This document shows, one piece after another, positions 41,379-58,653 of a DNA stretch of 64,000 nucleotides. Location: assembly GCA_035697485.1 (NCBI GenBank), contig DASSCU010000043.1, positions 11,548-75,547 of the forward strand, given 5' to 3'. Below the pieces are notes generated by a model. That model was given only the letters and a program-made list of their open reading frames with translations. It ran no database searches and had not been told where the DNA came from. How positions within the stretch are numbered: position 1 is the first letter of the stretch; every line of letters begins with the position of its first letter. The stretch comes from Actinomycetota bacterium. GTDB lineage: Bacteria; Actinomycetota; UBA4738; HRBIN12. Both the position numbers and the translations under genes were made by a program.

Positions 41379-41765
41379 CTACGCCATCTGGTTCCGCATG
41401 CTCTCCGCGGCCATCGCGAAGTAGTCGTCGAGCGCCTGCGCGACGTCTGTGGGTGGATCGAGCGCATCGACCGCCTCCCGCATGTGCGCGAGCCACCGAT
41501 CACGCTCCTCGCCCCCGATCGAGAAGGGCGCGTGCCGCATGCGAAGCCGTGGGTGCCCTCGCTCGTCGCTGTAGTCAGTCGGGCCGCCCCAATACTGCGC
41601 CAGGAAGAGCGTCAGCCGGCGACGGGCCGGGGCGAGGTCGTCGGGCTCGGGATACAGACGCAGCAGCACCGGGTCGCCGGCGACACCCTCGTAGAAGCGA
41701 TCGACCAGGGCCTCGAAGAACGGCATGCCGCCGACGGTCTCGTACAGGGTCTGCTGTTCGCTCAC
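41379..41765 (-). CDS. Truncated haemoglobin (group I, GlbN-like)
   Basis: 128 aa with ...LYETVGG...FYEGVAGDP.L...Y... 2-on-2 globin motifs. Confidence 0.75.
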   Translation of the reverse strand: MSEQQTLYETVGGMPFFEALVDRFYEGVAGDPVLLRLYPEPDDLAPARRRLTLFLAQYWGGPTDYSDERGHPRLRMRHAPFSIGGEERDRWLAHMREAVDALDPPTDVAQALDDYFAMAAESMRNQMA

Positions 41766-42971: not shown

Positions 42972-43424
42972 GTCTGCCTCATGCCGGCTGCGGGGGGAAG
43001 CCGCCCTGGGTCGGGTCGGCTGATGACGGCCGCAGACCTGACCTTGTTCTACCCCCTGGGGACCGAGACGACAACGTCATTCCCCAATAATCTCAGGCGA
43101 AAAAGCGCTTATCTGGGTATCATCGGTCCCCCGTCCGTCGAGCCCGACGGCGGTCCGGCAGCGAAGGGAACCGTCCAGCGGATCTGGTCGGCCGCGTGTG
43201 CGCGACACCCAGTTCCTGAGCATCGGGGCTCACGTCGCATTCGAGGGACGCGTCAGCACCGTGCGGTCCTCCGAGGACAACGCGCTGATGCGATCGATGC
43301 CAACATCCCGGAGCGGGACGGACATTGGCGGTCGACGGAGGCGGTTCGCTCCATCCCGCGCTGATGGGTGACGTGATCGCCTCGCTGCCCGTCGAGAACG
43401 GGTGGGAAGGGATCGTCATCCACA

Positions 43425-44338
43425 TCACGGCACGGCGGCGAACTCGGTGACATCGAGGATCCATCCTCCCGCCGCCGCGTTCGTGACCACCTGCTCGGCG
43501 GAGGTCGCGCCTGCGATCACCGAGGCGACCGGGCGGTGGGCCAGGATCCAGCCGAACGCGAGCTCGAGCAGGGTGTGGTCGCGATCCGTCGCGAACGCCT
43601 CGAGTGCCTCGATCCGATCGAACCGTTCGTGGGTCATCGCCTCCGCCCGCTCCTGGTCGTCGAACCACGTGTCGAGCCTCGAACCCACAGCCACACGCGT
43701 TCCGCGCCGGTACTTGCCCGTCAGCAACCCGTTCGCCAGCGGGTAGTACGGGAGGTACGCGATGCCGAGGCGTCCGGCTTCGTCGAGCCCGTCGTCGATA
43801 TCGGCTCGGTCGAGCAGGTTCAGCTCGTTCTGCACGCACGCGAACCGCGCACCCGCGCCCGCCGCCCGGTCGGCCGCTCGGAGCTGCGCCGCCGAGAAGT
43901 TCGAACAACCGATCTCGCGCACCTTGCCTTCGCGCACGAGCGCGTCGAGCTCACCCAGGGTCTCCCCGATCGGTGTCTCGTCGCGTGGCTCGTGAAGCTG
44001 GTAGAGATCGATGCGATCGGTACCGAGACGTCGCAGACTCGCCTCGAGTGAGGCGCGGACGTAGGCGGGTGATGCCCCCCGGCGAGACCGGGCCTCCCGG
44101 GCTTGCCGAACTTCGATGCGAGGACGACTCGGTCGCGACGGCCCCGCAGCGCCCGACCGAGGAACGCTTCACTCTCCGTGTCGCCGTAGATGTCGGCCGA
44201 GTCGAACAACGTGATCCCCACGTCGATCGCCGCATCGACGACCTCGCGGGTCCGGGCCTCGTCGATGCTCCAGCCGAAGTTGTTGCACCCGAGCCCCACG
44301 ACAGAGACCTCGAGCGACCCGATCGAGCGTGTCCGCAC
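43425..44338 (-). pseudogene. Aldo/keto reductase disrupted by a frameshift in a G6 homopolymer (or a sequencing error)
   Basis: The N-terminal 85 aa (MRTRSIGSLEVSVVGLGCNNFGW...VVLASKFG) sit in one frame and the C-terminal 255 aa (...GASPAYVRASLEASLRRLGTDRIDLYQLHEPRDETPIGETL...KVREIGCSNF...) in another. The switch occurs at the ccggggggcat run (plus-strand C6 at 44075-44080). Confidence 0.6.
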
Positions 44339-44386
44339 GACGCGGAGGTTACCCCGACCGCATCGAACGCACGCAGAGGGCTCGCA

Positions 44387-45220
44387 TCACGCGTGGCATC
44401 TCGAAAGACCGGCGTCGAGCCGATCCCCGGAATCGGCATCGATGAAGCGCCATCGGTAGGCTCCCGGGCGCAACGCGAGATCCAGCACCCCCCAGTTGTC
44501 GTTGCCGGTGATCCGCTTCTGCGAGCCGGACTTCCTCGAGCTGAACGACCGTGTCTCGACCCCGCCCATCCCGACCACGAACTCTCGGATGCCGTCGGCC
44601 GCGACCCTCCCGGACGGTCGCTTCCTCGCGAATCGTTCGTAGTCGTGGTCGTGCCCGTTCAGGATCACGTCGACACCGTTCGCATAAGCGGTGCGCCACC
44701 AGGCGGCGACGCCCTGCTGATTCCCGTTCTGGCCCGAGCTCCACCGCGGGTGGTGGAAGAAGAGGAGCTCGCACCGGCGGTCGTCGCTCGAGAGCACGGT
44801 GGCGAGGCGGGTCCGCTGGCGCGCGATGCGGACGTTGGAATCCAGGGAGACGACGAGCCAGCTCCCGAGCACGAACGACCGGACCCTCCCTGCCTGCACG
44901 TGGAAGTAGGACTCGTATCCGGCAGCGCCCCGCGTCATCCAGTCGTGGTTGCCCGGGCTCGGCCTGGTGATGCTCCGGAACCGTCCCCACGTGGGCTCGT
45001 AGTATCGGTTGAATTGGCTCCCCGTTCCGTCGGGGTAGGCGTGATCGCCGACCGTGAGCACGAAGTCGGGGTCGAGGGCGATCACTCGATCGGCGGTCTG
45101 GGTGTCGCCGGAACCGCTCGACCCGATGTCCCCGGCGACGACCACGTGCACGGCCTCGGCGGGCGTGACCGTGGCCAGGGTGAACGTCACCGACAGCGCG
45201 AACGTCACGATCCTCGCCAT
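44387..45220 (-). CDS. Secreted calcineurin-like metallophosphoesterase
   Basis: Start ATG 45220 with SD GGAGG. Signal peptide MARIVTFALSVTFTLATVTPAEA. Motifs GDIG, GDHAY, GNHD and GHDHDYER. Confidence 0.75.
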   Translation of the reverse strand: MARIVTFALSVTFTLATVTPAEAVHVVVAGDIGSSGSGDTQTADRVIALDPDFVLTVGDHAYPDGTGSQFNRYYEPTWGRFRSITRPSPGNHDWMTRGAAGYESYFHVQAGRVRSFVLGSWLVVSLDSNVRIARQRTRLATVLSSDDRRCELLFFHHPRWSSGQNGNQQGVAAWWRTAYANGVDVILNGHDHDYERFARKRPSGRVAADGIREFVVGMGGVETRSFSSRKSGSQKRITGNDNWGVLDLALRPGAYRWRFIDADSGDRLDAGLSRCHA

Positions 45221-45298
45221 GCGCACCTCCTCACCGCCATGCCGTTGACAGGGTCCTGCTCCAAGGATAGGAGGAGGCTCCATCGAGAGGAGGGCCAG

Positions 45299-45706
45299 AT
45301 GCACCGGAACCTCGCATCGTTGTTGGTACTCGCGAGCCTCGTGATCGGCGCCTTCGCGTTCTCGGCGGTCGCCGACGTGCGCGGAGGCGGCCAGTCGCTC
45401 GCACAACGGGTGACCGCGCTCGAGGCGAGCGCGGAGCGTCAGCGCCGGGCGATCGACGGCCTGCGTGAAGAGAACCGCCAGCAGGATCGAACGATCCAGC
45501 GACTCCTCCGCTTCCGCACCTCGGCCAACGAGCGCATCGCGGTGCTCGAGCGGCGCACCTCGAGGCTCAGCGGGCGAGGCGTGTACTCCGGTCCGGTCGA
45601 CAACGGACAGGTCCGGCTCGGGGCCGACCCGGCCGACTGCGCCGGTGCGGTCGCGGAGTGGAACGCGGCCGGCACGTCGCTCGGCTGCGTCCCGCCCCCT
45701 GCGTAG
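45299..45706 (+). CDS. Hypothetical secreted coiled-coil protein
   Basis: SD GAGGAGGG. MHRNLASLLVLASLVIGAFAFSAVA signal peptide, then a heptad-like region (QRVTALEASAERQRRAIDGLREENRQQDRTIQRLL). Confidence 0.45.
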   Translation: MHRNLASLLVLASLVIGAFAFSAVADVRGGGQSLAQRVTALEASAERQRRAIDGLREENRQQDRTIQRLLRFRTSANERIAVLERRTSRLSGRGVYSGPVDNGQVRLGADPADCAGAVAEWNAAGTSLGCVPPPA

Positions 45707-45796
45707 ACACTACGGCCCCGGACGCGAGGCGGGGGCGGACGTCGCGAACGCTCGCGACGTCCGCCCCCGGGCGGCCTTCCCTCGCAGGTACCGAAC

Positions 45797-46321
45797 TCAG
45801 CCCTGGTTGAGCGCGTCCTCCGGAGTCATCGGGTCGCCGGTCTCCAGCAGCGACTTGAGATCGCTGAGCACCCATGCCCAACCGCCGCCGGCGCCCACCT
45901 CTTCCAGGCCGCCGGACAGCAGGGTCGCGAGACCGGGCGCGCCGTCGAGCTCGTGGGTCAGCGTCAGCTTCGTCACGCCACCCTTCCCCTCGGCGATGTC
46001 GTAGGTGAGCCTCGTGAACCCCTCGGCTTCCATCTGGGGGTCCATCACCATGCGCCAGGTCTGCACGAGCCGGTTCGGCGGGTCGGCCTCGATCACCTCG
46101 CCGTCGATCGCGACGTCGGGGGCTCCGGTCTGCCGCATCGCCTCGCTCGTATAGGCGATGTACTTCCCGCCTGGGCGCAGGTCGTAGTCGACCGTACCGC
46201 CGTAGCCGTATCGGGCCGTCCAGGCCGGGTCGGTGATCGCCTGCCAGATGCGCTCGGGTGAGGCCTTGATGTACACGCGGTACACCTGGGTGGTGACCGC
46301 CGTCTCGGTGCTTGTCGTCAT
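45797..46321 (-). CDS. SRPBCC-superfamily protein (AHSA1 / activator-of-Hsp90-ATPase-like)
   Basis: 174 aa from ATG 46321. Typical AHSA1-like sequence (...YRVYIKASPERIWQAITDP...). Start overlaps the ArsR stop (ATGA). Confidence 0.75.
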   Translation of the reverse strand: MTTSTETAVTTQVYRVYIKASPERIWQAITDPAWTARYGYGGTVDYDLRPGGKYIAYTSEAMRQTGAPDVAIDGEVIEADPPNRLVQTWRMVMDPQMEAEGFTRLTYDIAEGKGGVTKLTLTHELDGAPGLATLLSGGLEEVGAGGGWAWVLSDLKSLLETGDPMTPEDALNQG

Positions 46322-46656
46322 GCCGTTCCCTCCCCTTCCAGCTCGTGCTTGAGCTCCGCGAGCGCCGACACCCGGCGCTCCGTGTACTTGTCGATCCACC
46401 GGTCGTGGATCAGCCGGACCGGCACCGGGTTGAGGAAGTGCAGCTTCTCCCGGCCCTGCCGGTGCGTGACGACGAGGCCGGCATCCTCGAGCACCCGCAG
46501 ATGCTTCATGACCCCGAAGCGCGACATCTCGAGCTCGGACTCGAGCTGCGTCAGCGTGCGGCCGTCACGCTCGAACAGCAGGTCGAGCAGGAAGCGTCGC
46601 GTCGGGTCTGCGAGCGCCTTGAACACACGGTCGTCGTCGTTCACGGGTCGCAGCAT
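46318..46656 (-). CDS. ArsR/SmtB-family transcriptional regulator
   Basis: FKALADPTRRFLLDLLFERDGRTLTQLESELEMSRFGVMKHLRVLEDAGLV (winged HTH). Start taken at ATG 46656, 3 nt from the palindrome. Confidence 0.8.
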   Translation of the reverse strand: MLRPVNDDDRVFKALADPTRRFLLDLLFERDGRTLTQLESELEMSRFGVMKHLRVLEDAGLVVTHRQGREKLHFLNPVPVRLIHDRWIDKYTERRVSALAELKHELEGEGTA

Positions 46657-46658
46657 AG

Positions 46659-46674
46659 GTGACCATATGGTCAC
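46659..46674. promoter_or_regulatory. Perfect 16-bp palindrome GTGACCATATGGTCAC, candidate ArsR-family operator over a leaderless -10 (TATGGT)
   Basis: Seen directly. It lies 3 nt upstream of the ArsR ATG; a TANNNT hexamer lies 6 nt upstream of the ATG, consistent with a leaderless transcript. Confidence 0.4.
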
Positions 46675-46745
46675 ATGTCAAGCGGGAGCAGCCAGTCGCG
46701 TAATGTTCGCGGCATGCTCGAGTCACCGATCCGGCCGGCATCGCC

Positions 46746-49700
46746 GTGAGCATCTCGAGAGCACAGCGATCGCTCGCGCTGAGGCCAGGCGAGGGGGCCC
46801 CGGTCGCGCTCATCGTCGCGATCTCGTTCTTCGTCGCGGCCGGGCTGATGATCGGCCAGAGCGGCATCGAGGCATTGTTCTTCGATCGGTACGGGGTCGA
46901 TCGTCTGCCCGTGATGTACCTCGTCTTGGGAGGGACGATGTTCCTCGCGACCCTCGGGTTCGGATGGCTCGTCGTCCGCCTCGGGCGGGGCGGGGCCTGC
47001 ATCGTGATCCCGATCTCGGTCGCGGCGTTCGCGCTCGCGGGAAGGGCGGCGATCGCGGCCGATGTCGCATGGATCACGCAGGCGCTGTGGCTCCTGCAAG
47101 GGGTGGGCTACTTCGTTCTCGGGCTGACGGTTTGGGGGTTGGCAGGCATCGTCACCGACACCCGTCAGGCCAAACGCTTCTTCCCGTTGATCGGCGCCGG
47201 AAGCGTGCTCGGATACGTGATCGGCGGGCTCGTGACGAAGCCGCTCGCGACGTGGCTCGGCACTCCCAACCTGCTGCTCGTCTGGGTCGCGACCCTCGTC
47301 GGCGCCGTCGGGCTGAGCACCGTACTCCTCGCTCGGGCGAACCGGCAGGCCGTGGGCACCGATCGCCGCCCCGACGCGACCGGGCAGCTGACCGTCGGCC
47401 TTCGGTACGTGGCTCGCTCCACCCTGATGCGATGGCTCGCCCTCGGGTCGATCCTGTTCTCCCTATTGTTCTTCTCTCTCTACCTGCCGTTCTCGCGCGC
47501 GGCGACCGACCGGTTCCCGAACCCCGATGACCTGGCCGGGTTCTTCGGTCTGTTCTTCGGCGTGTCGACAGGCGTCGCGTTCGTGCTGTCGCTGTTCGTG
47601 ACGAACCGAGCGTTGGCCCGGTTCGGGGTGCCGACGGTGCTGCTCGTGCTGCCGCTGCTCTACGTCGTGGCGTTCGGGGTGCTCGCGATCGAGGACGGCT
47701 TCGCCACCCTCATGGTCTTCAGGTTCGCGCAGGTCGCATGGCTCCAGGGCGGCGCTTCGAGCACCACCGAGGCCGTGATCAACACGGTGCCGCCCGATCG
47801 ACGTGATCAGACCAGGGCGTTCATCTACGGCGGGCCGACGCAGGTCGGCACGATCCTCGCCGGCGTGATCGCGCTCGTCGGCGAACGCGCCCTCGCTCCT
47901 CGCGTGCTCTACCTCATCGGTCTGACCGCGGCGGTGCTCGCGACGATCGCGATGATCGGCGTCCGCCGGGCTTACCCCAGGGAACTCGTGCAGGCGCTCC
48001 GTGAAGGCCGGCCCCGCGTGTTCGGTGCCGACCAGTACGGATCGGTCGCGCCCGAGCCTTTCGGACTGGCGCGGGCGGATGCCTCTGCCCTCGAGGTCGC
48101 CGTCGGGGGGCTCGGAGATCCCGACGCGCGCGTGCGCCGGGTCGCGGCGACCGTGCTCGGGGATCTGGACGCTCCGGTCGCTCGGGATGCCCTCGTCGGT
48201 GCGCTCGACGACGGCGACGACGCTGTGCGCGCGGACGCCCTCCGCTCGCTCGCCCGCTCCGGCGCGATCGAGGCCGTCCCCGACATCCTTCGACGGACGA
48301 CCGATCGGGCACCGGCGGTGCGGGTCGCGACGGCCCACGCCCTGCGCACGCTCGGCGTACCGCCGGAAGCCGCATCCCATGCAGCGGCGCCCCTCATGCA
48401 CGACCCCGACCCGTTCGTGCGAGTGAGCGCCGCCGCGGCGCTCGCCGCCCTCGACGACCATCGGGCCGCGACGATCACGCTGATCGAGCTCGCCGGGTCG
48501 GTCGATGACGACGTACGGATCGCCGCGTTCCGAGAGATGCGGGGGCTCGGGTCGAAGGTCACGCTCGATGTCGTGCTCGGCGGCATGCAGGACGACGCTC
48601 CGCTCGTGCGAGCCGAAGCCGCCCGTGTGTGCGCGGAGCTCGCCCGAATCAACACCGACGCCGAGGGCGCCCGCGCTCTCGACGCGTTGGTTTCGGCCGC
48701 GTGCGATCGACAGCGCGTGGTGCGGGAGGCCGCGCGCGACGGACTCGCCACGATCGGCGAGCCAGCGGTCGATCCGCTCATGCGCTCCTTGGACGCACGC
48801 AACCTGCGAGCGGGCGCGCTGGCCGCGCTCGAGCGGCTTCCCGTGGGGAACCGTGCCGACCAACTCCGCGCCTTCGCAGCCTCGACCGTGCAGGAGGCCG
48901 TGGAGCGGCACGGAGTGGGCACAGCGCTCGAGGACGACGGTGGCGAGGCCGTCCGCCTGCTCAAGGATTCGCTGCTCTTCCTGTCCGAGCGCGACGCGGT
49001 GCTCGGCCTTCGAGCCGCCGCGCTGATCGATGGCGGTGCGCAGATGCGCGTCGCGCTCGAGAACCTCTCGGCGACCGACCCAGGTCAGCGGGCCAACGCC
49101 CTCGAGGTGATCGAGAGCGTGGCAGAGCGTGACATCGTGCGACCCCTGCTGACGATCTGGGAGGGCACCCCGGCGCGCCTCGAACTCCAGACCGTGCAGC
49201 AACGACTGGAACACGACCCCGACGATTGGATCAGAGCGTGCGTCGCGCTGGCGGCACGCTCGCGAGGAGGAACGATGACCGAGACCCTGTCCACGCTCTC
49301 GACGATGGAACGTGTGCTCTTCCTGCGGAAGGTGCCGCTGTTCTCGGCGCTCCCGCCGCCCGACCTGGAGCCGATCGCCTCGGTCGCCCGGGAACAGGCC
49401 TTCGCGGACGGCGACACGATCGCCGAGCAAGGCGAGCCCGGTGAAGCGATGTTCATCATCGTGAGTGGCGACGTCGCGGTGACCTCGGGCCGCGGCGAGG
49501 AGCGGAGGGTGCTCGCCACTCGTTCGCAGGGCGACGTCGTGGGCGAGATGGCCGTGATCACGAGCGAGCCCCGCATCGCCGATCTCGTCTGCGATGGGCC
49601 CGTCCGCGTGCTGTCGATCGATCGGCCGCGCTTCGAGGCGATCCTGCGAGAACGGCCCGAGACCTCCCTCGGCGTGATCCGCGTGCTGTGTCAGCGATTG

Positions 49701-49772
49701 GCAGAGGGTGGGGACGAAGGCCGGTTTGACGTTGCCGACGGCACCGGGACCACGACAGCGTCGACGGGGTGA
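46746..49772 (+). CDS. 12-TM transporter-like domain (MFS / TLC nucleotide-transporter-like) fused to HEAT/PBS-lyase repeats and a C-terminal cyclic-nucleotide-binding (CAP/CNB) domain
   Basis: 12 hydrophobic helices in the first ~480 aa. Repeated DPDARVRRVAATVLGDL / DGDDAVRADALRSLA HEAT-like units. C-terminal FLRKVPLFSALPPPDLEPIASVAREQAFADGDTIAEQGEPGEAMFIIVSGDV...GEMAVI is a canonical cNMP-binding module. Confidence 0.8.
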   Translation: MSISRAQRSLALRPGEGAPVALIVAISFFVAAGLMIGQSGIEALFFDRYGVDRLPVMYLVLGGTMFLATLGFGWLVVRLGRGGACIVIPISVAAFALAGRAAIAADVAWITQALWLLQGVGYFVLGLTVWGLAGIVTDTRQAKRFFPLIGAGSVLGYVIGGLVTKPLATWLGTPNLLLVWVATLVGAVGLSTVLLARANRQAVGTDRRPDATGQLTVGLRYVARSTLMRWLALGSILFSLLFFSLYLPFSRAATDRFPNPDDLAGFFGLFFGVSTGVAFVLSLFVTNRALARFGVPTVLLVLPLLYVVAFGVLAIEDGFATLMVFRFAQVAWLQGGASSTTEAVINTVPPDRRDQTRAFIYGGPTQVGTILAGVIALVGERALAPRVLYLIGLTAAVLATIAMIGVRRAYPRELVQALREGRPRVFGADQYGSVAPEPFGLARADASALEVAVGGLGDPDARVRRVAATVLGDLDAPVARDALVGALDDGDDAVRADALRSLARSGAIEAVPDILRRTTDRAPAVRVATAHALRTLGVPPEAASHAAAPLMHDPDPFVRVSAAAALAALDDHRAATITLIELAGSVDDDVRIAAFREMRGLGSKVTLDVVLGGMQDDAPLVRAEAARVCAELARINTDAEGARALDALVSAACDRQRVVREAARDGLATIGEPAVDPLMRSLDARNLRAGALAALERLPVGNRADQLRAFAASTVQEAVERHGVGTALEDDGGEAVRLLKDSLLFLSERDAVLGLRAAALIDGGAQMRVALENLSATDPGQRANALEVIESVAERDIVRPLLTIWEGTPARLELQTVQQRLEHDPDDWIRACVALAARSRGGTMTETLSTLSTMERVLFLRKVPLFSALPPPDLEPIASVAREQAFADGDTIAEQGEPGEAMFIIVSGDVAVTSGRGEERRVLATRSQGDVVGEMAVITSEPRIADLVCDGPVRVLSIDRPRFEAILRERPETSLGVIRVLCQRLAEGGDEGRFDVADGTGTTTASTG

Positions 49773-50518
49773 CCTTTCAGCGACAGGCTCCTGCGTTCGA
49801 GCCCGTCGAGATCGATCCCCGAAGCGGCTGCGGCGGCATCGGTGACCAGGATCTCGCCCGGCCCCGCTTGGGCGGCGACGTGGGCGGCGACGTTGATCGC
49901 ATCTCCCAAGGCCGTGAAGTCGCTCGTTGCCCCGCTCGAGACCACCCCGACGAACGCCGTGCCCGTATGCACCCCCGCACCGAGGGGCAGCCACGGGCCG
50001 TCGTCGTCTCCGTGCCCAGTCGCGACCAGCAGGTGCTCCGCCGCGCGCACCGCCGCGGCGGCGTGATCCTCACCCGCCGTGAGCGGCATGAAGAAGCCTA
50101 CGACCTCGTCCCCAACGAACTTCTCCACGATCGCGTCGTGAGCGAGGAGCGCGTCTGTCGCGACCCTGTAGAAGCGCTGCATCAGGTGCGCGAACTCCAT
50201 CGTGCCGATCTGCCTCGCGATGTCGCTCGAGCTCCGCACGTCGGCGAACAGGAAGGAGAGTTCGATCTCCGCGCCGCTGACGTCCTTCGTCGACAACCAC
50301 GTCACGCATCGCGAACAGAGGTTGGGGTTCTTCGCCCACGGGGTGAAGCCGAACGGCCCCAGGAGAAGCGGCCCCACGCCCGCGAACGGGACCGAGCACA
50401 GCCTGCACCGGGGTCCCTTGGGCAGGAGGCGGAACACGAAGTGCCCGAAGTGCGCGGACGGATGTGACCCGTCGAGGTAGGCGCGCCATTCGTCCTCGGC
50501 GGTCGCGTACCTCGGCAT
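49691..50518 (-). CDS. Class III adenylate/guanylate cyclase with N-terminal Cys4 zinc-ribbon-like segment
   Basis: CRLC...CSRC N-terminal, then cyclase core LFADVRSSS...GDEVVGFF...GVHTG...GDAINVAAHV. Confidence 0.8.
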   Translation of the reverse strand: MPRYATAEDEWRAYLDGSHPSAHFGHFVFRLLPKGPRCRLCSVPFAGVGPLLLGPFGFTPWAKNPNLCSRCVTWLSTKDVSGAEIELSFLFADVRSSSDIARQIGTMEFAHLMQRFYRVATDALLAHDAIVEKFVGDEVVGFFMPLTAGEDHAAAAVRAAEHLLVATGHGDDDGPWLPLGAGVHTGTAFVGVVSSGATSDFTALGDAINVAAHVAAQAGPGEILVTDAAAAASGIDLDGLERRSLSLKGHPVDAVVVPVPSATSNRPSSPPSANR

Positions 50519-50522
50519 CCTC

Positions 50523-52478
50523 TCAGCTCCCCGCCGTGCCGGAATCGGTGGGCTGCCAACGGAGGGTGACGACCCGTACGGGGTCGGCGATGCCTCTCAG
50601 CGAGACCGCGCGCTCACGCTCAACGGGGAAGGGCATCGGCTCGCTCTCGACGGTGCTGCACGTCACGACGATCTCACTCGACTCCGCCAACGCGCCGACT
50701 CGAGCCGCCTGATGCACACCGATACCCGCGTAGTCGTCGCCGAGCACGGTGGCCTCCGCCGCGTGCAGTCCGATCCGGACCTGCGGTGCGAACCCGTGGA
50801 GGCGGCGATGCTCAGCCAGCGTGCGCTGGATCGCCACCGCACAGGTCGCCGCATCGTCCGCGGCGCTGAACGCGGCGAAGTAGCCGTCGCCGGTCGTGTG
50901 AACGACCGCACCCCCATGTCGCTCGATGAGCGTGCTCAGGGTCTCGTTGTGCCAGCGCATGATGCCTTCCCACGCCTCGTCGCCGATCGTCTCGAGCAGA
51001 TCCGTCGATCCGACGATATCCGTGAACATGAACGTCCGCCCGACCCGCCGCCCCTGGGCCTTCTCCCCCGACCTGATCAGGTCGAGGCAGCGCTGTGCCT
51101 CGAGTGCGGCGCCGAGTTGGTCGAACGTAGCGTGCGCAGCTCGGAGCTCCAGCATCGCCGACGCCTCATCGCCGTCCAGCCGGTGCGCGTTCGCCAGGCA
51201 TCGGCGGGCCCCGGCGGTCTCGAACGGCAGGTCGGCCTCCGTCCACAATCTGATGGCCAGGCGGAGTTCCTTGATGGCCCCGCCGGCATCGCCTTCGAAC
51301 GTGAGGACGCTTCCCAGGGCCTGGTGCGCGCTCGCCTGCCATACGGCCGCGTCGTAGCTCTGGGCGATCGTGCCGAGCTCCTCAGCCGCTGAACGCGCCT
51401 CTGCCGCATGGTGGGATGCGAGCGCGATCTCGACCGCCGCGGGGAGCAACCGGGCTCTTGCGACGGCCATCGGCTGTTCCGCGAGCGCTCCTCGGATCGA
51501 CGAACGCGCCGCCACGAACTGCCCGCGTGCGAGCTGCAACAACGCCAGGCCCGGTTGGGCATCGTTGCCACGTTGGTGGGCCATGGCGAATGCTTCGTCC
51601 GCAGCGTCGAGGTCGCCCATACGCAGACGGATCTCCCCGATCTCGCGGAATCCGACGGCGGATACGGGGAGTTCGCCGAACGCCGTCAGCTCTCGGACGG
51701 CTCGTCGCGCCTCGCTCTCGGCCTCGGCGAACGCGCCTCGCAACCGCATGATCTCGGCCTGCCGCACACGGCAATGGCCGGGGAATCCGTTGATCGACTG
51801 GCGCTCGCACCATCGCTTCGTCGCTTCCGTCCATTCGCCCGCCCGACGATAATCGGCGAGATCGATGCACGCGACGATCGTGAAGCAGTAGACGATCCCG
51901 GTCGCGATCGGCGTGAGCTCGCCGGCGACCGCGGCGACCGTGGCCTCGTCGATCAGGTCCATGCCATCCTTGACGTGGGCTTGGCCGATGTGAGCCATGC
52001 CTTGGCACATCAACCCGAACGCCTGCAGGTCCGGGTCGCCGTAGCGCGTGCCGATATCAAGCATCGCCGTCGCGTGCTGCATCATCTCCTCGAAGCTCTC
52101 GCTGCTGCGAGCCTTCGCCAGCTCGAGGTAGCCGTGCTCCACCCCCTCGGACTGAGCCGCGAGCAGTCGCGCAGCACGGCGGAACCAGCCTGCCGCCTGC
52201 GCGGAACCCAATCGGTCTCCCCAACGATCGGCCAGCTGCAGCGCGACGTACGCGGCGCGCCGCTCGTTCCCTTCGTGGTTGTACGCGGCGAATGCCTGCT
52301 CGAGCGCATCGATGCATCGGGCGGGATTGGCCGTCCACCACGCCGCCTCCGCCAACAGCTCCAATTCCTCGCCGGTGAGCGAGCCTTCCGCGGATGCGTC
52401 CGCGAACGCCTCGTACGCGTCCTGCCAGGCGTGGTCCTCAAGCGCCTGACGTGCGCGACCCAGCGTGCTGGCATCCAT
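50523..52478 (-). CDS. TPR-like helical N-terminal domain fused to class III adenylate/guanylate cyclase domain
   Basis: Start ATG 52478 (MDASTLGRARQ...). C-terminal FMFTDIVGSTDL...HTTGDGYFAAF...GLHAAEATVLGDDYAGIGVHQAARV. Confidence 0.8.
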   Translation of the reverse strand: MDASTLGRARQALEDHAWQDAYEAFADASAEGSLTGEELELLAEAAWWTANPARCIDALEQAFAAYNHEGNERRAAYVALQLADRWGDRLGSAQAAGWFRRAARLLAAQSEGVEHGYLELAKARSSESFEEMMQHATAMLDIGTRYGDPDLQAFGLMCQGMAHIGQAHVKDGMDLIDEATVAAVAGELTPIATGIVYCFTIVACIDLADYRRAGEWTEATKRWCERQSINGFPGHCRVRQAEIMRLRGAFAEAESEARRAVRELTAFGELPVSAVGFREIGEIRLRMGDLDAADEAFAMAHQRGNDAQPGLALLQLARGQFVAARSSIRGALAEQPMAVARARLLPAAVEIALASHHAAEARSAAEELGTIAQSYDAAVWQASAHQALGSVLTFEGDAGGAIKELRLAIRLWTEADLPFETAGARRCLANAHRLDGDEASAMLELRAAHATFDQLGAALEAQRCLDLIRSGEKAQGRRVGRTFMFTDIVGSTDLLETIGDEAWEGIMRWHNETLSTLIERHGGAVVHTTGDGYFAAFSAADDAATCAVAIQRTLAEHRRLHGFAPQVRIGLHAAEATVLGDDYAGIGVHQAARVGALAESSEIVVTCSTVESEPMPFPVERERAVSLRGIADPVRVVTLRWQPTDSGTAGS

Positions 52479-52536
52479 CCCGCGGTCCTCCGAGCTTCGA
52501 TGTTGCCACGACGGTCCGCCACCGGGAAGCGACCTT

Positions 52537-53895
52537 GTGGCGAGCGGCACGACCGGCGAGACTGCCCACGTGACGCTCCCCGAGACCCAGTACACGCTCG
52601 CTCCCGACGGCGTGCACATCGCCTATCAGGTCTCGGGCTCCGGCGACATCGACCTCCTGCTGATGCACGGCACCGTGTCGCACCTCGAGATCGCCTGGGA
52701 GGACCCCAAGCTTCGGCGCCTGTACGAGCGGCTGGGCGAGTTCTCGCGCCTGATCCGCTTCGACCGCCGGGGCATGGGCATGTCGGATCCGCTGGACCGC
52801 TTACCGACCTTCGACGAGCAGGTCGGTGACTTCCTCACGGTGATGGACGAGGTGCAGGCGGAGCGACCCGCCGTGATGGGCACCACCGATGCCGGCATGC
52901 TCGCGCTGGCGTTCGTCGCCGAACACATCGATCGGGTCTCCGCGGCGGTCGCGTTCGAGACCGCTCCCCGCCTCGTGCCCTCCGAGGACGACGACTTCGG
53001 CGTGGACCCGGAGATGCTCGCACGGATGGCGAACGCGAGCGTCGTGATCGACATCGACACCCACATCGGGATCGTGGCGCCGGCGCGCAGGGACGAGCCG
53101 GGCTTCAGGTCATGGTTCCGCCGGTACAACCGCTCGGCCTCCAGCGGCATCCGCATCGACGAGTTCATCAGGGAGAACACGCACTGGGACATCCGCGAGC
53201 TCTTGCCCTCGATCGACGTCCCCGTGCTGGTCATGAACCGCAGCCAGAACACGATCCTGCCGATGCGGAACGCGCACGCACTGGTCGCGGCGCTCCCGAA
53301 CGCCCGGCTCGCCGAGATCGACGGGACCGGCACGGCGATCTTCGCGGACGACGTCGAGGACATCGCCGACGAGATCGAAGCGTTCCTGACGGGCACACGG
53401 CCGCCGCCCAGGCGCGACCGGGTGCTCGCGACCGTGCTCTTCACCGACGTGGTGGACTCCACGCGGCTCGCGGCCGAGCTCGGCGATCAGCGCTGGCGGG
53501 AGATGCTCGAGCGCCACCACCGGTTGCTCCGTGCCGAGCTCGACCGCTTCGGCGGGCACGAGGTGCACACGGCCGGAGACGGGTTCCTCGCGACGTTCGA
53601 CTCACCCCGACACGCCATCCTGTGCGCACGGGCAGCAGCCGCCGCGCTCGGCTCTCTCGGCCTCGAGATCCGCGCAGGAGTCCACACGGGGGAGGTCGAG
53701 CGTTCCGACGGCGATGTGCAGGGCCTCGCGGTGCACATCGGCGCTCGCATCTCGGCCATGGCGGGCGCCGGCCAGGTCTTCGTCTCGTCGACGGTGACGG
53801 AACTCGTCGTGGGCTCGGGTCTGGAGTTCCTCGACCGCGGCGAGCACGAGTTGAAGGGCGTGCCCGGCCAGTGGCACGTGTACGAGGTGGCCTGA
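52537..53895 (+). CDS. Alpha/beta-hydrolase fold domain fused to class III adenylate/guanylate cyclase domain
   Basis: GTG 52537 with GGGAAG upstream. N-terminal HG...GMGMSD hydrolase-like region and C-terminal LFTDVVDSTRL...HTAGDGFLATF...GVHTGEVE...GLAVHIGARI. Confidence 0.75.
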   Translation: MASGTTGETAHVTLPETQYTLAPDGVHIAYQVSGSGDIDLLLMHGTVSHLEIAWEDPKLRRLYERLGEFSRLIRFDRRGMGMSDPLDRLPTFDEQVGDFLTVMDEVQAERPAVMGTTDAGMLALAFVAEHIDRVSAAVAFETAPRLVPSEDDDFGVDPEMLARMANASVVIDIDTHIGIVAPARRDEPGFRSWFRRYNRSASSGIRIDEFIRENTHWDIRELLPSIDVPVLVMNRSQNTILPMRNAHALVAALPNARLAEIDGTGTAIFADDVEDIADEIEAFLTGTRPPPRRDRVLATVLFTDVVDSTRLAAELGDQRWREMLERHHRLLRAELDRFGGHEVHTAGDGFLATFDSPRHAILCARAAAAALGSLGLEIRAGVHTGEVERSDGDVQGLAVHIGARISAMAGAGQVFVSSTVTELVVGSGLEFLDRGEHELKGVPGQWHVYEVA

Positions 53896-53896
53896 C

Positions 53897-55441
53897 ATGC
53901 GCGAGGTGACGATCGGCGCCGCTCCCCTCGAGATCGAGGATCTGCTCGCGATCGCGCGAGGCGCCAGGGTCGAGCTCGACGACGATGCGCGCTCGACGAT
54001 CGCGTCGAGCCGGGCGGTCATCGACCGGATGCTCGAGAGCGACCAGCCCGTCTACGGCCTGAATACGGGCGTGGGACACATGAAAGACGTCGTCCTCCCC
54101 GACCAGGCACTGCGAAGCGGCCAGGTGACGCTGCTGATGACGCACGCCGGGGGGACCGGCCCGCCCCTGTCCGCCGAGCGGGTGCGTGGCTCGATGGCCG
54201 TGCGGCTGAACGGCATCGCTCGAGGAGGAGCTGGAGCGAGCCCCCGGGTGGCCGAGGTGCTCGTCGCGATGCTGAACGCCGGCGTCCATCCGGTCGTGCC
54301 GTCCCGCGGTTCGGTCGGTGCCGGCGACCTCGGCCAGATGGCCAGCATCGGACAGGTCATGATCGGCCGCGGCCTTGCCGAGCTCGGCGGCGACGTGCAC
54401 GCAGGCTCGGACGCGATGCGGCAGGCCGGCGTCGAGCCGTTGCGTCTCGAGCCCAAGGACGGACTCACGATCGTGTCGTCGAACGCGGTCTCGATCGCCG
54501 AGGCAGCGATCGTGATCGAGCGGGCGCAGCGAGTCGCCGAACGCGCGGACGTGGTGGCGGCGCTCTCGCTCGAGGCGACGAGCGGCAATCCGTCGGTCGT
54601 CCGTCCGGCGGTGGGCCGGGCCAAGCCCTTCCCCGGCCAGATCGCCGCGTGCGCGGGGGTCGATGAGGCGCTCTCGGGGAGTTTCCTGTTCGAGCCCGGT
54701 GCTTCGAGGTCGGTGCAGGATCCCTTGTCGTTCCGGGTCATCCCTCAGGTGCACGGTGCTTTCCGCGTCGCGATCGCCGCCGCGCGCAGCGCCGTGCACA
54801 TCGAGCTGAACGGGCGCGGCGACAATCCACTCGTCTCGATCGAGGACGACGCGATCGTGCACAACGGCAACTTCCACCCGCTCGTGATGGCGATCGCCTT
54901 CGATCAGTTGCGCGTCGCGATGACGCACGTGGCCCAGATCAGCGAGCGGCGGATGAGCCACCTGTGGGATCTGTTCTTCGAACGGATCGCCGGGGCGGGC
55001 GGGCCGCCGCCGGGCTGGACGCCCCCGCAGATGCTCGGACTGCAGCTGCGCTACCCCGCGGCCGCGACGTACTCCGCGCTGCGACACCTTGCGTCGCCGG
55101 CGACCCTGGACACCCCGCCCCTCGACATCGGCGTCGAGGATCACGCCACCGCTGCCCCCCTCGCGGTGCGCATGACCGAAGACGCCCTCGCCCTGCTCGA
55201 GGAGATCCTGTCGATCGAGGTGCTGATGGCCAACGACCTGCTCGGCATGGCGACCGACGGATCCGTCGGGCCGGATCGTCCGGTGCCCTCGCTGGGAACC
55301 GGGACCGACGCGCTCTCATCGAGCGCTCGCCGGGCGATCGGCGAGCTCGACACCGACCGGTCGACGGCGGACGTTCAGCGTGCCGTCGCGACCGCCATCT
55401 TCGGAGCTCGGACGAACGACGAGCCGACCGTCGGGACCTGA
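53897..55441 (+). CDS. Histidine/phenylalanine ammonia-lyase (HAL/PAL) family homologue lacking the MIO-forming serine
   Basis: Aligns with HutH (YGLNTGVG..., NFHP, QDPLSFRVIPQV), but the Ala-Ser-Gly triad is GSVGA-GDL (Ser deleted) and the conserved Tyr of QDPYSLR is Leu. The start is 1 nt after the upstream cyclase stop. Confidence 0.8.
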   Translation: MREVTIGAAPLEIEDLLAIARGARVELDDDARSTIASSRAVIDRMLESDQPVYGLNTGVGHMKDVVLPDQALRSGQVTLLMTHAGGTGPPLSAERVRGSMAVRLNGIARGGAGASPRVAEVLVAMLNAGVHPVVPSRGSVGAGDLGQMASIGQVMIGRGLAELGGDVHAGSDAMRQAGVEPLRLEPKDGLTIVSSNAVSIAEAAIVIERAQRVAERADVVAALSLEATSGNPSVVRPAVGRAKPFPGQIAACAGVDEALSGSFLFEPGASRSVQDPLSFRVIPQVHGAFRVAIAAARSAVHIELNGRGDNPLVSIEDDAIVHNGNFHPLVMAIAFDQLRVAMTHVAQISERRMSHLWDLFFERIAGAGGPPPGWTPPQMLGLQLRYPAAATYSALRHLASPATLDTPPLDIGVEDHATAAPLAVRMTEDALALLEEILSIEVLMANDLLGMATDGSVGPDRPVPSLGTGTDALSSSARRAIGELDTDRSTADVQRAVATAIFGARTNDEPTVGT

Positions 55442-55472
55442 GCGCCGACGCTGCTGCGTCGCGGCTGCGCGC

Positions 55473-55853
55473 CTACGGTTGCTGCCAGGTCACCGACCGG
55501 ACGTGGATGTAGCAGCCGAACGGCACCTCGATGCGCATCGTGCGGATCGGGCCCATCCAGCGGTAGGACGCGCATCCCTCGGCATCACGCAGGTCGGCCG
55601 AGATCGTCGCCGGCCCGATGACACCGCCGACGTCCCTGAGGAACCGGTAGCGGATGAACGCCGCCCCGGTCGCGCCGACCGAGGCCACGCACTTCACGTG
55701 CAGCTCGGGACCGTCTTCCGGGAACACCTCGCAGCCGCCCGGATTCCGCACACCAGAATAATCGGCTCCATCGCGGGTGATCGGCCCCGCGGCGAGCGCA
55801 GGCGTCGCGATCGCGGCGACGAGGGCGAGGATCAACAGCGTTCGCTTCATCAT
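55473..55853 (-). CDS. Hypothetical small secreted protein (4 Cys)
   Basis: MMKRTLLILALVAAIATPALA signal peptide. Strong SD GGAGGAGGAAAG upstream. Confidence 0.5.
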   Translation of the reverse strand: MMKRTLLILALVAAIATPALAAGPITRDGADYSGVRNPGGCEVFPEDGPELHVKCVASVGATGAAFIRYRFLRDVGGVIGPATISADLRDAEGCASYRWMGPIRTMRIEVPFGCYIHVRSVTWQQP

Positions 55854-56045
55854 CGCTTTCCTCCTCCTGTTCGGTGGTCACGCGGCTGACCGTCGAAGCG
55901 GGGGGTGAGGCCCGTGGGGACAAGCCTGGGGAAGCCGATGGGAAGCGTGCCGGACCCATCGTTACCCGGTTCTCGTTCTCGACCACCCTAACGGTTCACG
56001 AGGATCGGCGGGAGTCGGTCGTGCGGGCGACGGCACCGCAGTACA

Positions 56046-57200
56046 TCAGCCGGTATCGAGGAACGACCGGCGGTCGACCTGCGTCGGGCCTCGCTCGGGT
56101 CCGCCGCGATAAGGGGAGCCGTCGGCTCGGAACCATCGGACCCTTCCATCGGGGGCGCGTGCGACGCTCCACCCGTGCTCGTGGACGAGCCGGTGGTGGA
56201 AGCCGCAGACCAGCAGCAGGTTGTCGAGGTCGGTGGCGCCCCCACGCGACCACCACACGATGTGGTGGGCGTTCACGAACGCGGTCGATCCACACCCCGG
56301 GAATCGGCAACCGCGGTCGCGGTGTCGCAGCTGCCGCATCATCGAAGCGGACGGCTCCCGCCTCGTGCGCCCGAAGGCAACCGGGTCGCCCGCGTCGCTC
56401 TCGGCGACGACCTGCACGCGCGCGTCGCATGCGAGGCGCTGCAGGGTCTCGGGTGGCATCACCGCCCCGTGCTCGGTCTCGACGTTCCGCCTCCCCGCGA
56501 GGGCCTCGAGCGATGCATGGACCACCAGGGTCGCGCGATCGGCGTCGGCGTCGGCCCCGATGCGTTGCGAGCACAGTGCGAGCAGCGCATCGGCCCGTCG
56601 GGCCTCGATGTACGCACCGTCGTGCTCGTCCGGCATGATCGGGATCTGGTCGACGACACGCTGGAGCGCCTTCGCCACGACCGCGCCCTGCGCCGACGGC
56701 ATGCGGGCCTCGAGGCCGAATCGCCGCCCGCCGTCCTGGTACCAGTAGCGCAGCGAACGGTCCCGCTCGAACTCTGCGGTCTCGTCGTGGGCGGCCCTCA
56801 CCTCGAGGTCGGCACGGCGCCGGATCGTGGCGCACGTGACGTCGCCGGCCCACTCGACGAGCTCGCCCTCGGTCTGCGGCGTCGCGAACCGACTGAGCTC
56901 GATCACCTTGTCGATCCCGAGCATCCCGGCCTCGAACGCGGCGGCGATCTGGGGGAGATCGTGGAGCGTGGTCGCCGACTTGATGACGCGATCGGCCTTC
57001 CACCACGACATGCCGTAGCGGATCGACAGCCAGTGCGCCAGATCTCGAGCGCCCGAATCACGCCATGCGCCACGACGGTCGACCTCGGCGATCACGCCGA
57101 ACAGCGCCACCTGCGCCGCTGCGATGTGGCGGTTCAGGGCGTCGGCGACGCCGATCAGTCCGTCGTCGTCGAGCTCAGCGCTCGCGAGGGATCCGTACAT
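56046..57200 (-). CDS. DUF222 + HNH endonuclease-domain protein (actinobacterial 13E12-repeat-type HNH nuclease)
   Basis: N-terminal DUF222-like region and C-terminal HNH CRFPGC...HHIVWWSRGGATDLDNLLLVCGFHHRLVH. Confidence 0.8.
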   Translation of the reverse strand: MYGSLASAELDDDGLIGVADALNRHIAAAQVALFGVIAEVDRRGAWRDSGARDLAHWLSIRYGMSWWKADRVIKSATTLHDLPQIAAAFEAGMLGIDKVIELSRFATPQTEGELVEWAGDVTCATIRRRADLEVRAAHDETAEFERDRSLRYWYQDGGRRFGLEARMPSAQGAVVAKALQRVVDQIPIMPDEHDGAYIEARRADALLALCSQRIGADADADRATLVVHASLEALAGRRNVETEHGAVMPPETLQRLACDARVQVVAESDAGDPVAFGRTRREPSASMMRQLRHRDRGCRFPGCGSTAFVNAHHIVWWSRGGATDLDNLLLVCGFHHRLVHEHGWSVARAPDGRVRWFRADGSPYRGGPERGPTQVDRRSFLDTG

Positions 57201-57597
57201 GGGTTCGATCGTATGCGGGAGCCGACGTTTGGACCGTGACCTGTGTCACGTGCGCGAGCACCCGCCGAGATCGGCTCTGAGCACGACGCCATCCATCCTT
57301 CGTACCTTTGCTCACCCTCGTCACGACCCGTACTCGGCGCGGAAATGGCGGAACATGGTGTCGATGATGCGGTGGCTCGCGATCTCGGGAGTGGCGGCGC
57401 TGGCGTTCGGTGCCGTGGCTCCGTCGGTCAGCCAGGCCAGGCTGCGCGACCCCTGAGGTCGCCCCCGCCGAACGACGGGTGCATATCGGGGGGCGCATCG
57501 ACGTTCGTCTGCCGGAGTTCTCCAGGACTGCGCGAGGCGCGGTCGAGAGACCGGCCATGTATTCCTCGACGCTCGTGGGTGTCGCCGTGTCGATCTC

Positions 57598-58653
57598 CTA
57601 TCGGGTCGGCAGCTCCGGCCGGCCGTCCTCCAGCAGGTCGACCTTCGTGGAGCGCTCGAACGCGCGGACGCCGCGAAGGACCATGTCGACCGATCCCACG
57701 GGATCGATGCCCACAGCCGTCTCGGCCGCCAACACGAGCCCGTGCACGCCGTCGAGGAGCGTGTTGGCGATGTCGTTGGATTCGGCGATCGTCGGCACCC
57801 GACCGGTGACCATCGACTCCAGGAGGTTCGTCGCGACGTACACCGGGCGATTCCATCGGTTCGCGTGCCGGATGATCGTCTTCTGCACGTAAGGAACGAC
57901 CTCGAACGGGATCTCCCGAGACAGGTCACCTCGGTCGATCAGGACCGCGTCGGAGGCGTCGATGATGGCGTCCATGTTCCTCACCCCCGCGCGGCTTTCG
58001 ATCTTGGCGATGATGCTCGACCCCTGCGGCGCCAACGATCGGATGCGTGACACGTCGTCGGCGCCCGCCGCGAACGAGAGGGCGTAGTCCGCGACCCCGC
58101 GCCGGGCTCCCAGTTCGATCGCGGCGATGTCCTTCTGCGACAGCGCCGGCAGGTCGGGCGGCGGATCGATGGTCACGCCCTTGTTGGAACCTATGCGTCC
58201 GGCGTTCGTCACCACCGCCCGCGCCAAGCGCTCGGATACCTCCGTCACGCGCACCACCGCACCATCGAAATCGATCTCGAGCACGCTGCCGACGGCCAAC
58301 GCTTCGAAGAGTGACTCCGGCCACAACGTCACCGACGACGCCGATCCACTGACCGGATCGGCCGAGAGCAGGATCTCGCTACCCTCGTCGAGCACCACGC
58401 CATCGGCGACCTCACCGCATCGCACCTGGGCGCCCTCGGTATCGAGACAGATCGGGGTGGACGAGCAACCCTGCACCAGCTCGATCGAGGGCTCCACTCG
58501 TTCGAGCGGGGTGTGCGAGAGGTTGATCCGGAACAGGTCGACATCCCGAGCGTCGAGCTCACGGATGATCTCGGGGTCCATGGACGCCGGACCGAGCGTG
58601 CAGAGGATCTGGATCTTCAACGTGCGGCCTCCGGGGGCGACGGTGTCGTTCAC
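57598..58653 (-). CDS. Pyruvate-kinase-like protein (PK barrel domain only, no C-terminal domain)
   Basis: N-terminus LKIQILCTLGPAS...FRINLSH matches the PK N-terminus (KIVCTLGPAS...ARLNFSH). It is 351 aa, versus about 470 for canonical PK. GTG start. Confidence 0.65.
   Translation of the reverse strand: MNDTVAPGGRTLKIQILCTLGPASMDPEIIRELDARDVDLFRINLSHTPLERVEPSIELVQGCSSTPICLDTEGAQVRCGEVADGVVLDEGSEILLSADPVSGSASSVTLWPESLFEALAVGSVLEIDFDGAVVRVTEVSERLARAVVTNAGRIGSNKGVTIDPPPDLPALSQKDIAAIELGARRGVADYALSFAAGADDVSRIRSLAPQGSSIIAKIESRAGVRNMDAIIDASDAVLIDRGDLSREIPFEVVPYVQKTIIRHANRWNRPVYVATNLLESMVTGRVPTIAESNDIANTLLDGVHGLVLAAETAVGIDPVGSVDMVLRGVRAFERSTKVDLLEDGRPELPTR

Follow-up and report, generated by a model that had tools for sequence, protein, structure and literature searches.

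Three genes for class III nucleotide cyclases lie next to the gene of a membrane protein with a cyclic-nucleotide-binding (CNB) domain in an Actinomycetota bacterium (UBA4738; HRBIN12; assembly GCA_035697485.1). Do these genes form a signaling system, and which of them belong to it? We analyzed positions 11,548 to 75,547 (forward strand) of contig DASSCU010000043.1, a stretch of 64,000 nucleotides with a G+C content of ∼70%, hereafter called the window. The original prediction, made from the letters of the window, had grouped five adjacent genes, here named A to E, into one sensing and relay unit. We found that only part of this unit is widely conserved: A and a cyclase of the B type stay together across Actinomycetota, whereas C, D, and E are patchy and lineage-specific. 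The predicted cyclic-nucleotide theme of the neighborhood was borne out, as three cyclases accompany the CNB protein and the only matches to a cyclase homology domain (CHD) in the 64-kb window came from genes B, C, and D.

All five genes are present as open reading frames with a G+C content at third codon positions (GC3) of 0.86-0.91, which is of the coding type, and their limits were set by GC3 and by independent gene calls in relatives. Domains were assigned by a Pfam scan of the window proteins, with NCBIfam models and a PDB sequence search as extra comparisons. The domains predicted originally held for all five proteins, by Pfam and, for the superhelix of C, by an AlphaFold2 (AF2) model. 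The closest genomes are uncultured "Actinomycetes/Actinomycetota bacterium" metagenome-assembled genomes (MAGs), the best of which has 83% identity for A (L010; related loci carry L numbers). The sole exact match to protein E was a 6-kb Logan contig. The locus has the following features:

Gene A, 46746-49772, plus strand: 1008 aa; NTT/TLC-type domain with ∼12 transmembrane (TM) segments (∼18-405), HEAT solenoid (∼445-840), and C-terminal cyclic nucleotide (cNMP)-binding domain (∼855-985)
Gene B, 49691-50518, minus strand: 275 aa; class III cyclase, soluble; zinc-ribbon-like Cys4 module (C38, C41, C68, C71) at the N terminus
A/B 3'-end overlap, 49691-49772: 82 nt, convergent; encodes the C-terminal tails of both proteins
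Gene C, 50523-52478, minus strand: 651 aa; MalT-domain-III-like superhelix of the tetratricopeptide repeat (TPR)/SUPR type (3-473), then class III cyclase domain (478-639)
C/D divergent intergenic region, 52479-52536: 58 nt separating the C-B unit on the minus strand from the D-E unit on the plus strand
Gene D, 52537-53895, plus strand: 452 aa; LipJ-like alpha/beta-hydrolase-fold domain, then Rv1900c-type class III cyclase domain
Gene E, 53897-55441, plus strand: 514 aa; histidine ammonia-lyase (HAL)-family protein without the Ser that forms the 4-methylideneimidazole-5-one (MIO) group

The gene junctions were read directly from the sequence. D and E are separated by a 1-nt spacer (TGA-c-ATG), in agreement with the translational coupling proposed for them, and C and B by a 4-nt spacer with a Shine-Dalgarno (SD)-like GAGG (TGA-gagg-ATG), a junction that the original prediction had missed. 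The C-terminal tails of A and B within their overlap are unconserved in homologue alignments of either protein, and the relatives L002 and L006 have comparable overlaps of 49-52 nt. The starts of C and D were called independently in L002 too, giving 651 aa and 452 aa. From the gene junctions and strands, we predict that A forms a transcription unit by itself and that C-B and D-E form two more. The 58-nt stretch between C and D is presumably a shared control region. An Rfam scan of positions 43000-57500 (E <= 0.1) identified no regulatory RNA.

Conservation of the A-B pair

A profile search with A over genomes yielded 69 loci, all from uncultured Actinomycetota MAGs, 65 of which were testable. 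The neighbors of A were typed by tblastn with the window proteins. In 43 of the 65 testable loci, a gene directly adjoining A encoded a B-type cyclase, with both ribbon and CHD and an identity of 59-90%. Another 7 loci had a C-type cyclase adjoining A without B, and 9 had some other CHD within 1 kb of A. Altogether, a class III cyclase was found within 1 kb of A in 59/65 loci, and together with the reciprocal result given below (13/15) this confirms the suggested co-occurrence of the TLC/MFS-HEAT-CNB fusion with cyclases across Actinomycetota. Over all 69 loci the density of CHDs close to A (within 1 kb) was 0.42 per kb, versus 0.05 per kb farther out. Because of this density near A, and because B, C, and D are the sole CHDs of the window, the cyclases cluster more than expected by chance.

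The position of B relative to A varied. Among the 43 loci, B was upstream and divergent in 24, downstream and convergent as in the window in 14, upstream on the same strand in 4, and downstream on the same strand in 1. Hence, the adjacency of A and B survives rearrangement, being seen in four different arrangements. It reaches down to 40% A identity, and the identity of A to its window copy correlates with that of B to its own (Spearman 0.59, n = 43). For a reciprocal test, metagenome contigs were scanned with a B profile and the adjacency of A was scored by B identity to the window. A was adjacent in 13/15 testable loci for B homologues of at least 60% identity, in 3/6 for those of 55-60%, and in 0/8 for paralogues of 40-55%. 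When the neighbors of unlinked B paralogues were searched for CNB domains, any match was present in only 3 of ∼50 loci without an adjacent A. Since adjacency is high for close B homologues and zero for distant paralogues, the conserved unit consists of A and one orthologous group of zinc-ribbon cyclases.

Cyclase B and membrane protein A

The Pfam Guanylate_cyc match of B (33 bits) places its CHD at residues 87-232, and upstream of it lies the ribbon motif PRCxxCxxPF ... WxKNPxxCxxC. Ten residues are invariant in the B orthologues: C38, C41, C68, C71, D93, K133, D137, T202, N209, and H213. D93 and D137 form the metal-binding Asp pair. K133 and T202 align to the Lys and Thr of CyaC from Spirulina platensis (PDB 1wc1), the best solved relative, which are the ATP-specifying pair of class IIIb enzymes. 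Because of this Lys/Thr substrate pair, B is predicted to form cyclic AMP (cAMP). Among the transition-state residues the Asn is kept (N209) and the Arg position is taken by His213, and the canonical Asn and Arg set is thus incomplete. B therefore resembles CyaC in the class IIIb Lys and Thr, the metal Asp pair, and the Asn, and differs from it in having His instead of the transition-state Arg and in carrying a Cys4 ribbon where CyaC has its sensor domains. Within the wider family of zinc-ribbon CHD proteins, the Cys4 motif is kept in ∼92% of 97 full-length representatives, and position 213 is Arg in 77/97 and His in 7/97, the latter including the closest relatives of B. These counts suggest that the change from Arg to His sets the A-linked clade apart as a subgroup of its own among zinc-ribbon class III cyclases. 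Both this His213 subgroup and the pairing of A and B that persists through rearrangement appear to be unreported in the searchable literature. A Rosetta-stone fusion of B to A was sought and rejected: the best 150 B-family representatives, of 1.84 billion proteins searched, are almost all 190-310 aa long.

In protein A, Pfam detected TLC (34.3 bits, cutoff 21), HEAT_2 (85 bits in 5 stretches), and cNMP_binding (69 bits at residues 884-969), and the hydropathy profile has ∼12 hydrophobic or TM segments, arranged 6+6, within residues 18-405. NCBIfam gave a weak match to the AAA NTP/NDP exchanger family (E 4.8e-7). Among proteins of the PDB, the RI-alpha subunit of protein kinase A (PKA) and CRP are matched by the CNB domain and alphaRep proteins by the HEAT region. 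Retained in the phosphate-binding cassette GEMAVITSEPRIA are Gly-Glu and Arg, the contacts for the ligand's ribose and phosphate, and residues G933, E934, P942, R943, and A945 are invariant in 18 homologues. Domains of this type that are selective for cyclic GMP (cGMP) have a Thr after the cassette Arg; in the cassette of A this residue is Ile or Met, not Thr. A is presumed to be a reader, or effector, of cAMP.

The architecture of A is known. Major et al. 2017 (Genome Biol Evol, PMC5381601) described NTT-HEAT-cNBD proteins (cNBD, cNMP-binding domain) and, according to that survey, NTT-HEAT fusions are monophyletic and widespread and none has been characterized; proteins with or without the cNBD occur in free-living bacteria, cyanobacteria, pathogenic Chlamydiae, and oomycetes. 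The survey held one actinobacterial NTT sequence, and its authors independently put forward the speculation that transport, or ATP uptake, is tuned by cAMP made by an adenylate cyclase. A has the NTT/TLC domain, the HEAT repeats, and the C-terminal cNBD in the same order as these proteins. In uncultured soil Actinomycetota, unlike in that set, the family of A is abundant, and a dedicated zinc-ribbon cyclase is its partner. The literature searched contained no functional study of NTT-HEAT proteins, and a linkage of NTT-HEAT-cNBD genes to cyclase genes was found neither in the searchable literature nor in the accessible part of PMC5381601. The claim that the locus is not a described system thus has to be narrowed: the architecture of A has been described, and its linkage to a cyclase was, within those sources, not found reported.

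Cyclases C and D and the lyase-like protein E

Protein C has a Pfam Guanylate_cyc match and, in an AF2 model with a pLDDT of 89.6, an N-terminal region of ∼470 residues composed of 25 helices. In this model, the helix pairs form a solenoid that superposes on known TPR/SUPR sensors, so that the TPR domain predicted originally stands and can be refined to a MalT-like sensor superhelix. Unlike MalT and the STAND/LuxR-type regulators, C lacks an NTPase and a helix-turn-helix (HTH) domain, its superhelix is fused straight to the cyclase, and it contains four conserved cysteines. Mycobacterial cyclases of the Rv0386 type have the reverse order, CHD-ATPase-TPR-HTH. The cysteines C198, C204, C224, and C236 lie in the superhelix and are invariant in 30 homologues (YCxxIxxC ... 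WCxRQ ... GFPGxCRV); a metal, Fe-S, or redox site might be built from them. The CHD of C resembles those of Ma1120 and Rv1900c, and its residue pattern is His/Asp/His/Arg as in D.

Protein D combines the Pfam domains Abhydrolase_1 and Guanylate_cyc and in this resembles Mycobacterium tuberculosis Rv1900c (LipJ), in which an alpha/beta-hydrolase domain is followed by a class III cyclase domain. The NCBIfam LipJ model NF058673 matches D from end to end at 386 bits, far under its equivalog cutoff of 800 bits. The CHD of D aligns to that of Rv1900c (PDB 1ybt) with 178 bits over ∼156 residues, and the alignment has the same replacement of Asn by His as in Rv1900c, with Asp and Arg retained. At the Lys position, D has His where Rv1900c has Asn. 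The nucleophile elbow also differs: MGT(T/S)DAG is conserved in 14 orthologues of D, and this GT(T/S)DAG lacks the serine of the GxSxG motif that marks serine esterases. D further differs from Rv1900c in being translationally coupled to an MIO-less lyase; lipJ in M. tuberculosis is not known to have such a neighbor.

The activity of Rv1900c is that of an adenylyl cyclase, with a minor guanylyl component. As in its CHD, both C and D retain the metal Asp pair, the substrate-position Asp, and the Arg of the transition state. The Glu typical of guanylyl cyclases is absent at the Lys position in B, C, and D. Because no CHD has this Glu, cGMP is not predicted, and the residues point to cAMP as the likely product of the cyclases. 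The residue check that accompanied the original prediction therefore comes out in favor of ATP as substrate, with the metal Asp pairs in place. A heterodimer of B with C or D that restores a canonical site was considered and rejected: B lacks the Arg, C and D lack the Lys and Asn, and the composite would be incomplete either way.

Protein E matches Pfam Lyase_aromatic with 425 bits and reaches 339.5 bits with the HutH equivalog TIGR01225, below the cutoff of 539. Its loop reads GSVGA-GDL where HAL has GSVGASGDL; the Ser of the Ala-Ser-Gly triad that forms MIO is absent. The original prediction had regarded E as a degenerate ammonia-lyase. This view was not upheld, because ∼105 of the 120 closest homologues share the shortened loop without Ala-Ser-Gly, which argues for a stable subfamily rather than decay. 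The best solved relative is the ergothionase Td_ETL of Treponema denticola (PDB 6s7j, 213 bits; HALs, 188-202 bits). E is like Td_ETL and unlike HAL in three respects: the loop is one residue shorter without Ala-Ser-Gly, S-x-N replaces N195-G-T, and QDPLSFR replaces QDPYSLR (Tyr280 to Leu). It keeps the base Tyr53, the imidazole ligands His83 and Glu414, and the carboxylate ligands Gln274, Arg280, and Asn323 (N323 of NGNF, counted by eye). According to two recent preprints, the absence of MIO is a hallmark of trimethylammonia-lyases, namely the ergothionases and the histidine-betaine lyases, two groups separated by the thiolate-binding Lys384 of Td_ETL. The region of this Lys aligns ambiguously to the conserved LRYP motif of E, HMMER placing Leu384 there and MAFFT shifting the alignment by ∼2, with Arg385 one before the Lys. 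Because of the three shared departures from HAL and the retained ligands, we place E with the MIO-less trimethylammonia-lyases, and it is best read as a probably active lyase for a histidine betaine (hercynine or ergothioneine) that would remove trimethylamine. E differs from the Shewanella enzymes Swoo_3913, SO_3057, and SO_3299 in being cytoplasmic and cyclase-coupled, those enzymes being periplasmic and coupled to a flavocytochrome reductase. Genes for urocanate or thiourocanate metabolism (urocanase) were absent near E in the six contexts examined; an Amidohydro_1 gene lies upstream in one lineage. E homologues had no constant neighbor elsewhere in the contexts examined. One E-family member (P0093; L164, 7001-9367; 60% identical) is fused to a C-terminal S-adenosylmethionine (SAM)-dependent methyltransferase domain, which would be an odd partner for a lyase predicted to eliminate trimethylamine. 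The coupling of a cyclase to a lyase, as in D-E, appears to be unreported in the searchable literature.

How far do C, D, and E travel with A and B? The complete A-B-C-D-E block is present with unrelated flanks in L002 (81% E identity) and in L006 and L007 (70%). L003 (77%) has A-B-D-E and lacks C, and in L008 (67%) D-E is present together with an A-like gene at a distance of 8 kb. E is present alone in L004 and L005 (68%) and L009 (55%), and such solitary members of the E family at 55-68% identity adjoin ArsR-AHSA1, a glyoxalase, or an amidohydrolase gene. The D-E spacing is 0-2 nt in L002, L003, L006, and L008, the pair is restricted to relatives of the window, and D occurs without E in L019 and L040. 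Most loci have A-B without C, D, and E. C is adjacent to A only in relatives with roughly at least 50% A identity and belongs to a large family located elsewhere; a general linkage of C to A was rejected, as two C homologues (59-60% identity) were located in unrelated contexts that lack A. D-E is inverted and lies a few kb off A-B-C in L011, L012, and L038, and it is 6.6 kb off in L065. The gap between A-B-C and D-E in L012 (15793-18881), as in L011 and L038, contains a fourth cyclase with an Ad_Cy_reg (Rv1264-type) domain and a multicopper oxidase with a heavy-metal-binding domain. Hence, the five-gene block is lineage-specific, with C and D-E as additions in the lineage of the window.

A model for the locus and its surroundings

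We propose, with moderate confidence, that the locus encodes a cAMP signaling module built on the conserved A-B core, in which cAMP from B is read by A. The soluble zinc-ribbon cyclase B would make cAMP, which would bind the CNB domain of the inner-membrane protein A. The HEAT solenoid would relay the change in the CNB domain and alter the activity of the 12-TM domain, most plausibly nucleotide transport. C, co-translated with B, would bind a ligand or partner through its superhelix, and C and D, as later arrivals, probably feed extra inputs into the same cAMP pool. E, co-translated with D, would strip trimethylamine from hercynine or ergothioneine. The original prediction had named candidate inputs for the three cyclases: a metal or redox signal might enter through the zinc ribbon, a partner protein through the TPR domain, and a small molecule through the hydrolase fold. 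What the sequences show are the domain architectures, the residues for catalysis and ligand binding, the gene junctions, the conservation of A-B through rearrangements, and the patchier conservation of C and of D-E. We infer cAMP as the product, its binding to A, any transport activity of A and its substrate, any physical contact of B with A, what E acts on, and the feeding of C and D into the same reader.

Several observations weigh against this model. A and B are convergent in the window and hence not co-transcribed, and 6 of the 65 testable loci have no CHD within 1 kb of A. The TLC match of A spans only positions 160-374 of the 491 profile positions, and in the AF2 model of A (pLDDT 69.9, pTM 0.48) only the HEAT and CNB parts are confident, and pLDDT falls below 50 in the second half of the membrane domain. 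Because of this partial match and the poorly modeled membrane domain, a transport function of A is not secure. His is invariably present at the transition-state Arg position in A-linked B orthologues, and because of this replacement B may be a poor cyclase on its own, with reduced basal activity or dependence on a partner. In C and D, the canonical Lys and Asn are both His, and these cyclases may have low activity or unusual specificity. A protein of A-B fusion length was absent among the best 150 B-family representatives, a few of which have N-terminal membrane extensions.

The fact that A-linked B proteins have lost the catalytic Arg (invariant His213), which unlinked members keep, fits partner dependence and would also suit the opposite direction of control. 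A would then be a sensor of a transported or bound ligand and a scaffold that controls B, docked on the HEAT repeats via its zinc ribbon, much as a membrane anchor would hold a cyclase that is otherwise soluble, with the CNB domain serving product feedback instead of the main output. Both HEAT repeats and zinc ribbons typically mediate contacts between proteins, B is a soluble protein with the ribbon as its sole sensor domain, and the pair was kept through four arrangements. However, those 150 B-family representatives again offer no fused protein, and the conserved cNMP-binding residues argue that A at least reads a nucleotide. We consider such control of B by A unlikely as the principal function; it is compatible with reading of cAMP by A, and the two are not mutually exclusive. 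As for the genes beyond A-B, C, D, and E could have accreted by lineage without being integrated, E being a catabolic betaine lyase that came to stand after D by chance. The C-family members at 59-60% identity in contexts without A, the solitary E-family members at 55-68% identity, the D genes without E in L019 and L040, the many loci with A-B and none of C, D, and E, and the inverted D-E pairs set apart by another cyclase and a multicopper oxidase in L011, L012, and L038 all speak for such accretion. Yet the full block is kept with different flanks down to 70% E identity, the 0-2 nt D-E spacing is kept in L002, L003, L006, and L008, the C-B junction has 4 nt with an SD-like GAGG, and rearrangement leaves D-E within a few kb of A, and we therefore regard an unintegrated island as doubtful. 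Less probable still is a bolder version of the cAMP model, in which A is a cAMP-gated nucleotide transporter, either a substrate-activated cAMP exporter or a cAMP-controlled ATP/ADP exchanger, and B is active only when docked on the HEAT repeats. If true, the A-B pair would be a self-contained membrane signaling and transport complex, and a first functional model would become available for the orphan NTT-HEAT proteins found in Chlamydia, cyanobacteria, and oomycetes.

The genes around the locus offer further observations. Upstream of A lies an ArsR-family gene (46318-46674, minus strand), which forms a pair with an AHSA1/SRPBCC gene (45797-46674 for both). The perfect 16-bp palindrome GTGACCATATGGTCAC (46659-46674, within 46652-46681 of the window), given as lying in the 71-nt gap between the ArsR-family gene and A, is flanked by the two hexamers of a sigma-70-like site on the minus strand (TTGACA-18-TATGCT), the only such site found in this region. 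The palindrome looks like an ArsR operator and, by its position, could affect A as well. The same ArsR and AHSA1/SRPBCC pair is directly upstream of the E homologue in L004/L005 (8984-9843), which lack A, B, C, and D, as though the four genes had entered the space between ArsR and E or had been lost from it. A calcineurin-like phosphoesterase gene (44387-45406, minus strand) was considered as an Rv0805-type cAMP phosphodiesterase and gave no PDB or NCBIfam match at E <= 0.001. A calcineurin-like Metallophos gene recurs near A in L003 (3410-4393), L013, and L079; its role as the cAMP phosphodiesterase of the module is possible but unsupported. A gene for a DUF222 plus HNH endonuclease protein (13E12-repeat type) is present in the window (56046-57200, minus strand), L002 (285-1439), and L003 (2179-3327), with a varying flanking side, and may be connected with rearrangements of the locus. 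Farther out in the window, we noted the following genes:

30930-34058, plus strand: 1042-aa multi-PAS/GAF histidine kinase, unlinked to the cluster in relatives
41379-41765, minus strand: truncated (bacterial-like) globin, unlinked to the cluster in relatives
43425-43937, minus strand: 170-aa aldo/keto reductase reading frame covering profile positions 129-283 only, truncated or frameshifted
57598-58653, minus strand: 351-aa reading frame with the pyruvate kinase barrel only and no C-terminal domain; a 340-aa short form is present in L001 and L002

Overall, all component families of the locus were already known, and it is the pairing with a cyclase that is added here. The A-B pair provides the first concrete and cheaply testable hypothesis for NTT-HEAT-cNBD proteins, in which the ligand would be cAMP, its source the neighboring cyclase, and the output a change in transport. 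MIO-less HAL relatives, recently recognized as trimethylammonia-lyases, are abundant in soil Actinomycetota, and the coupling of such a lyase to a LipJ-like cyclase in one lineage suggests a link between betaine/ergothioneine-type chemistry and cAMP signaling.

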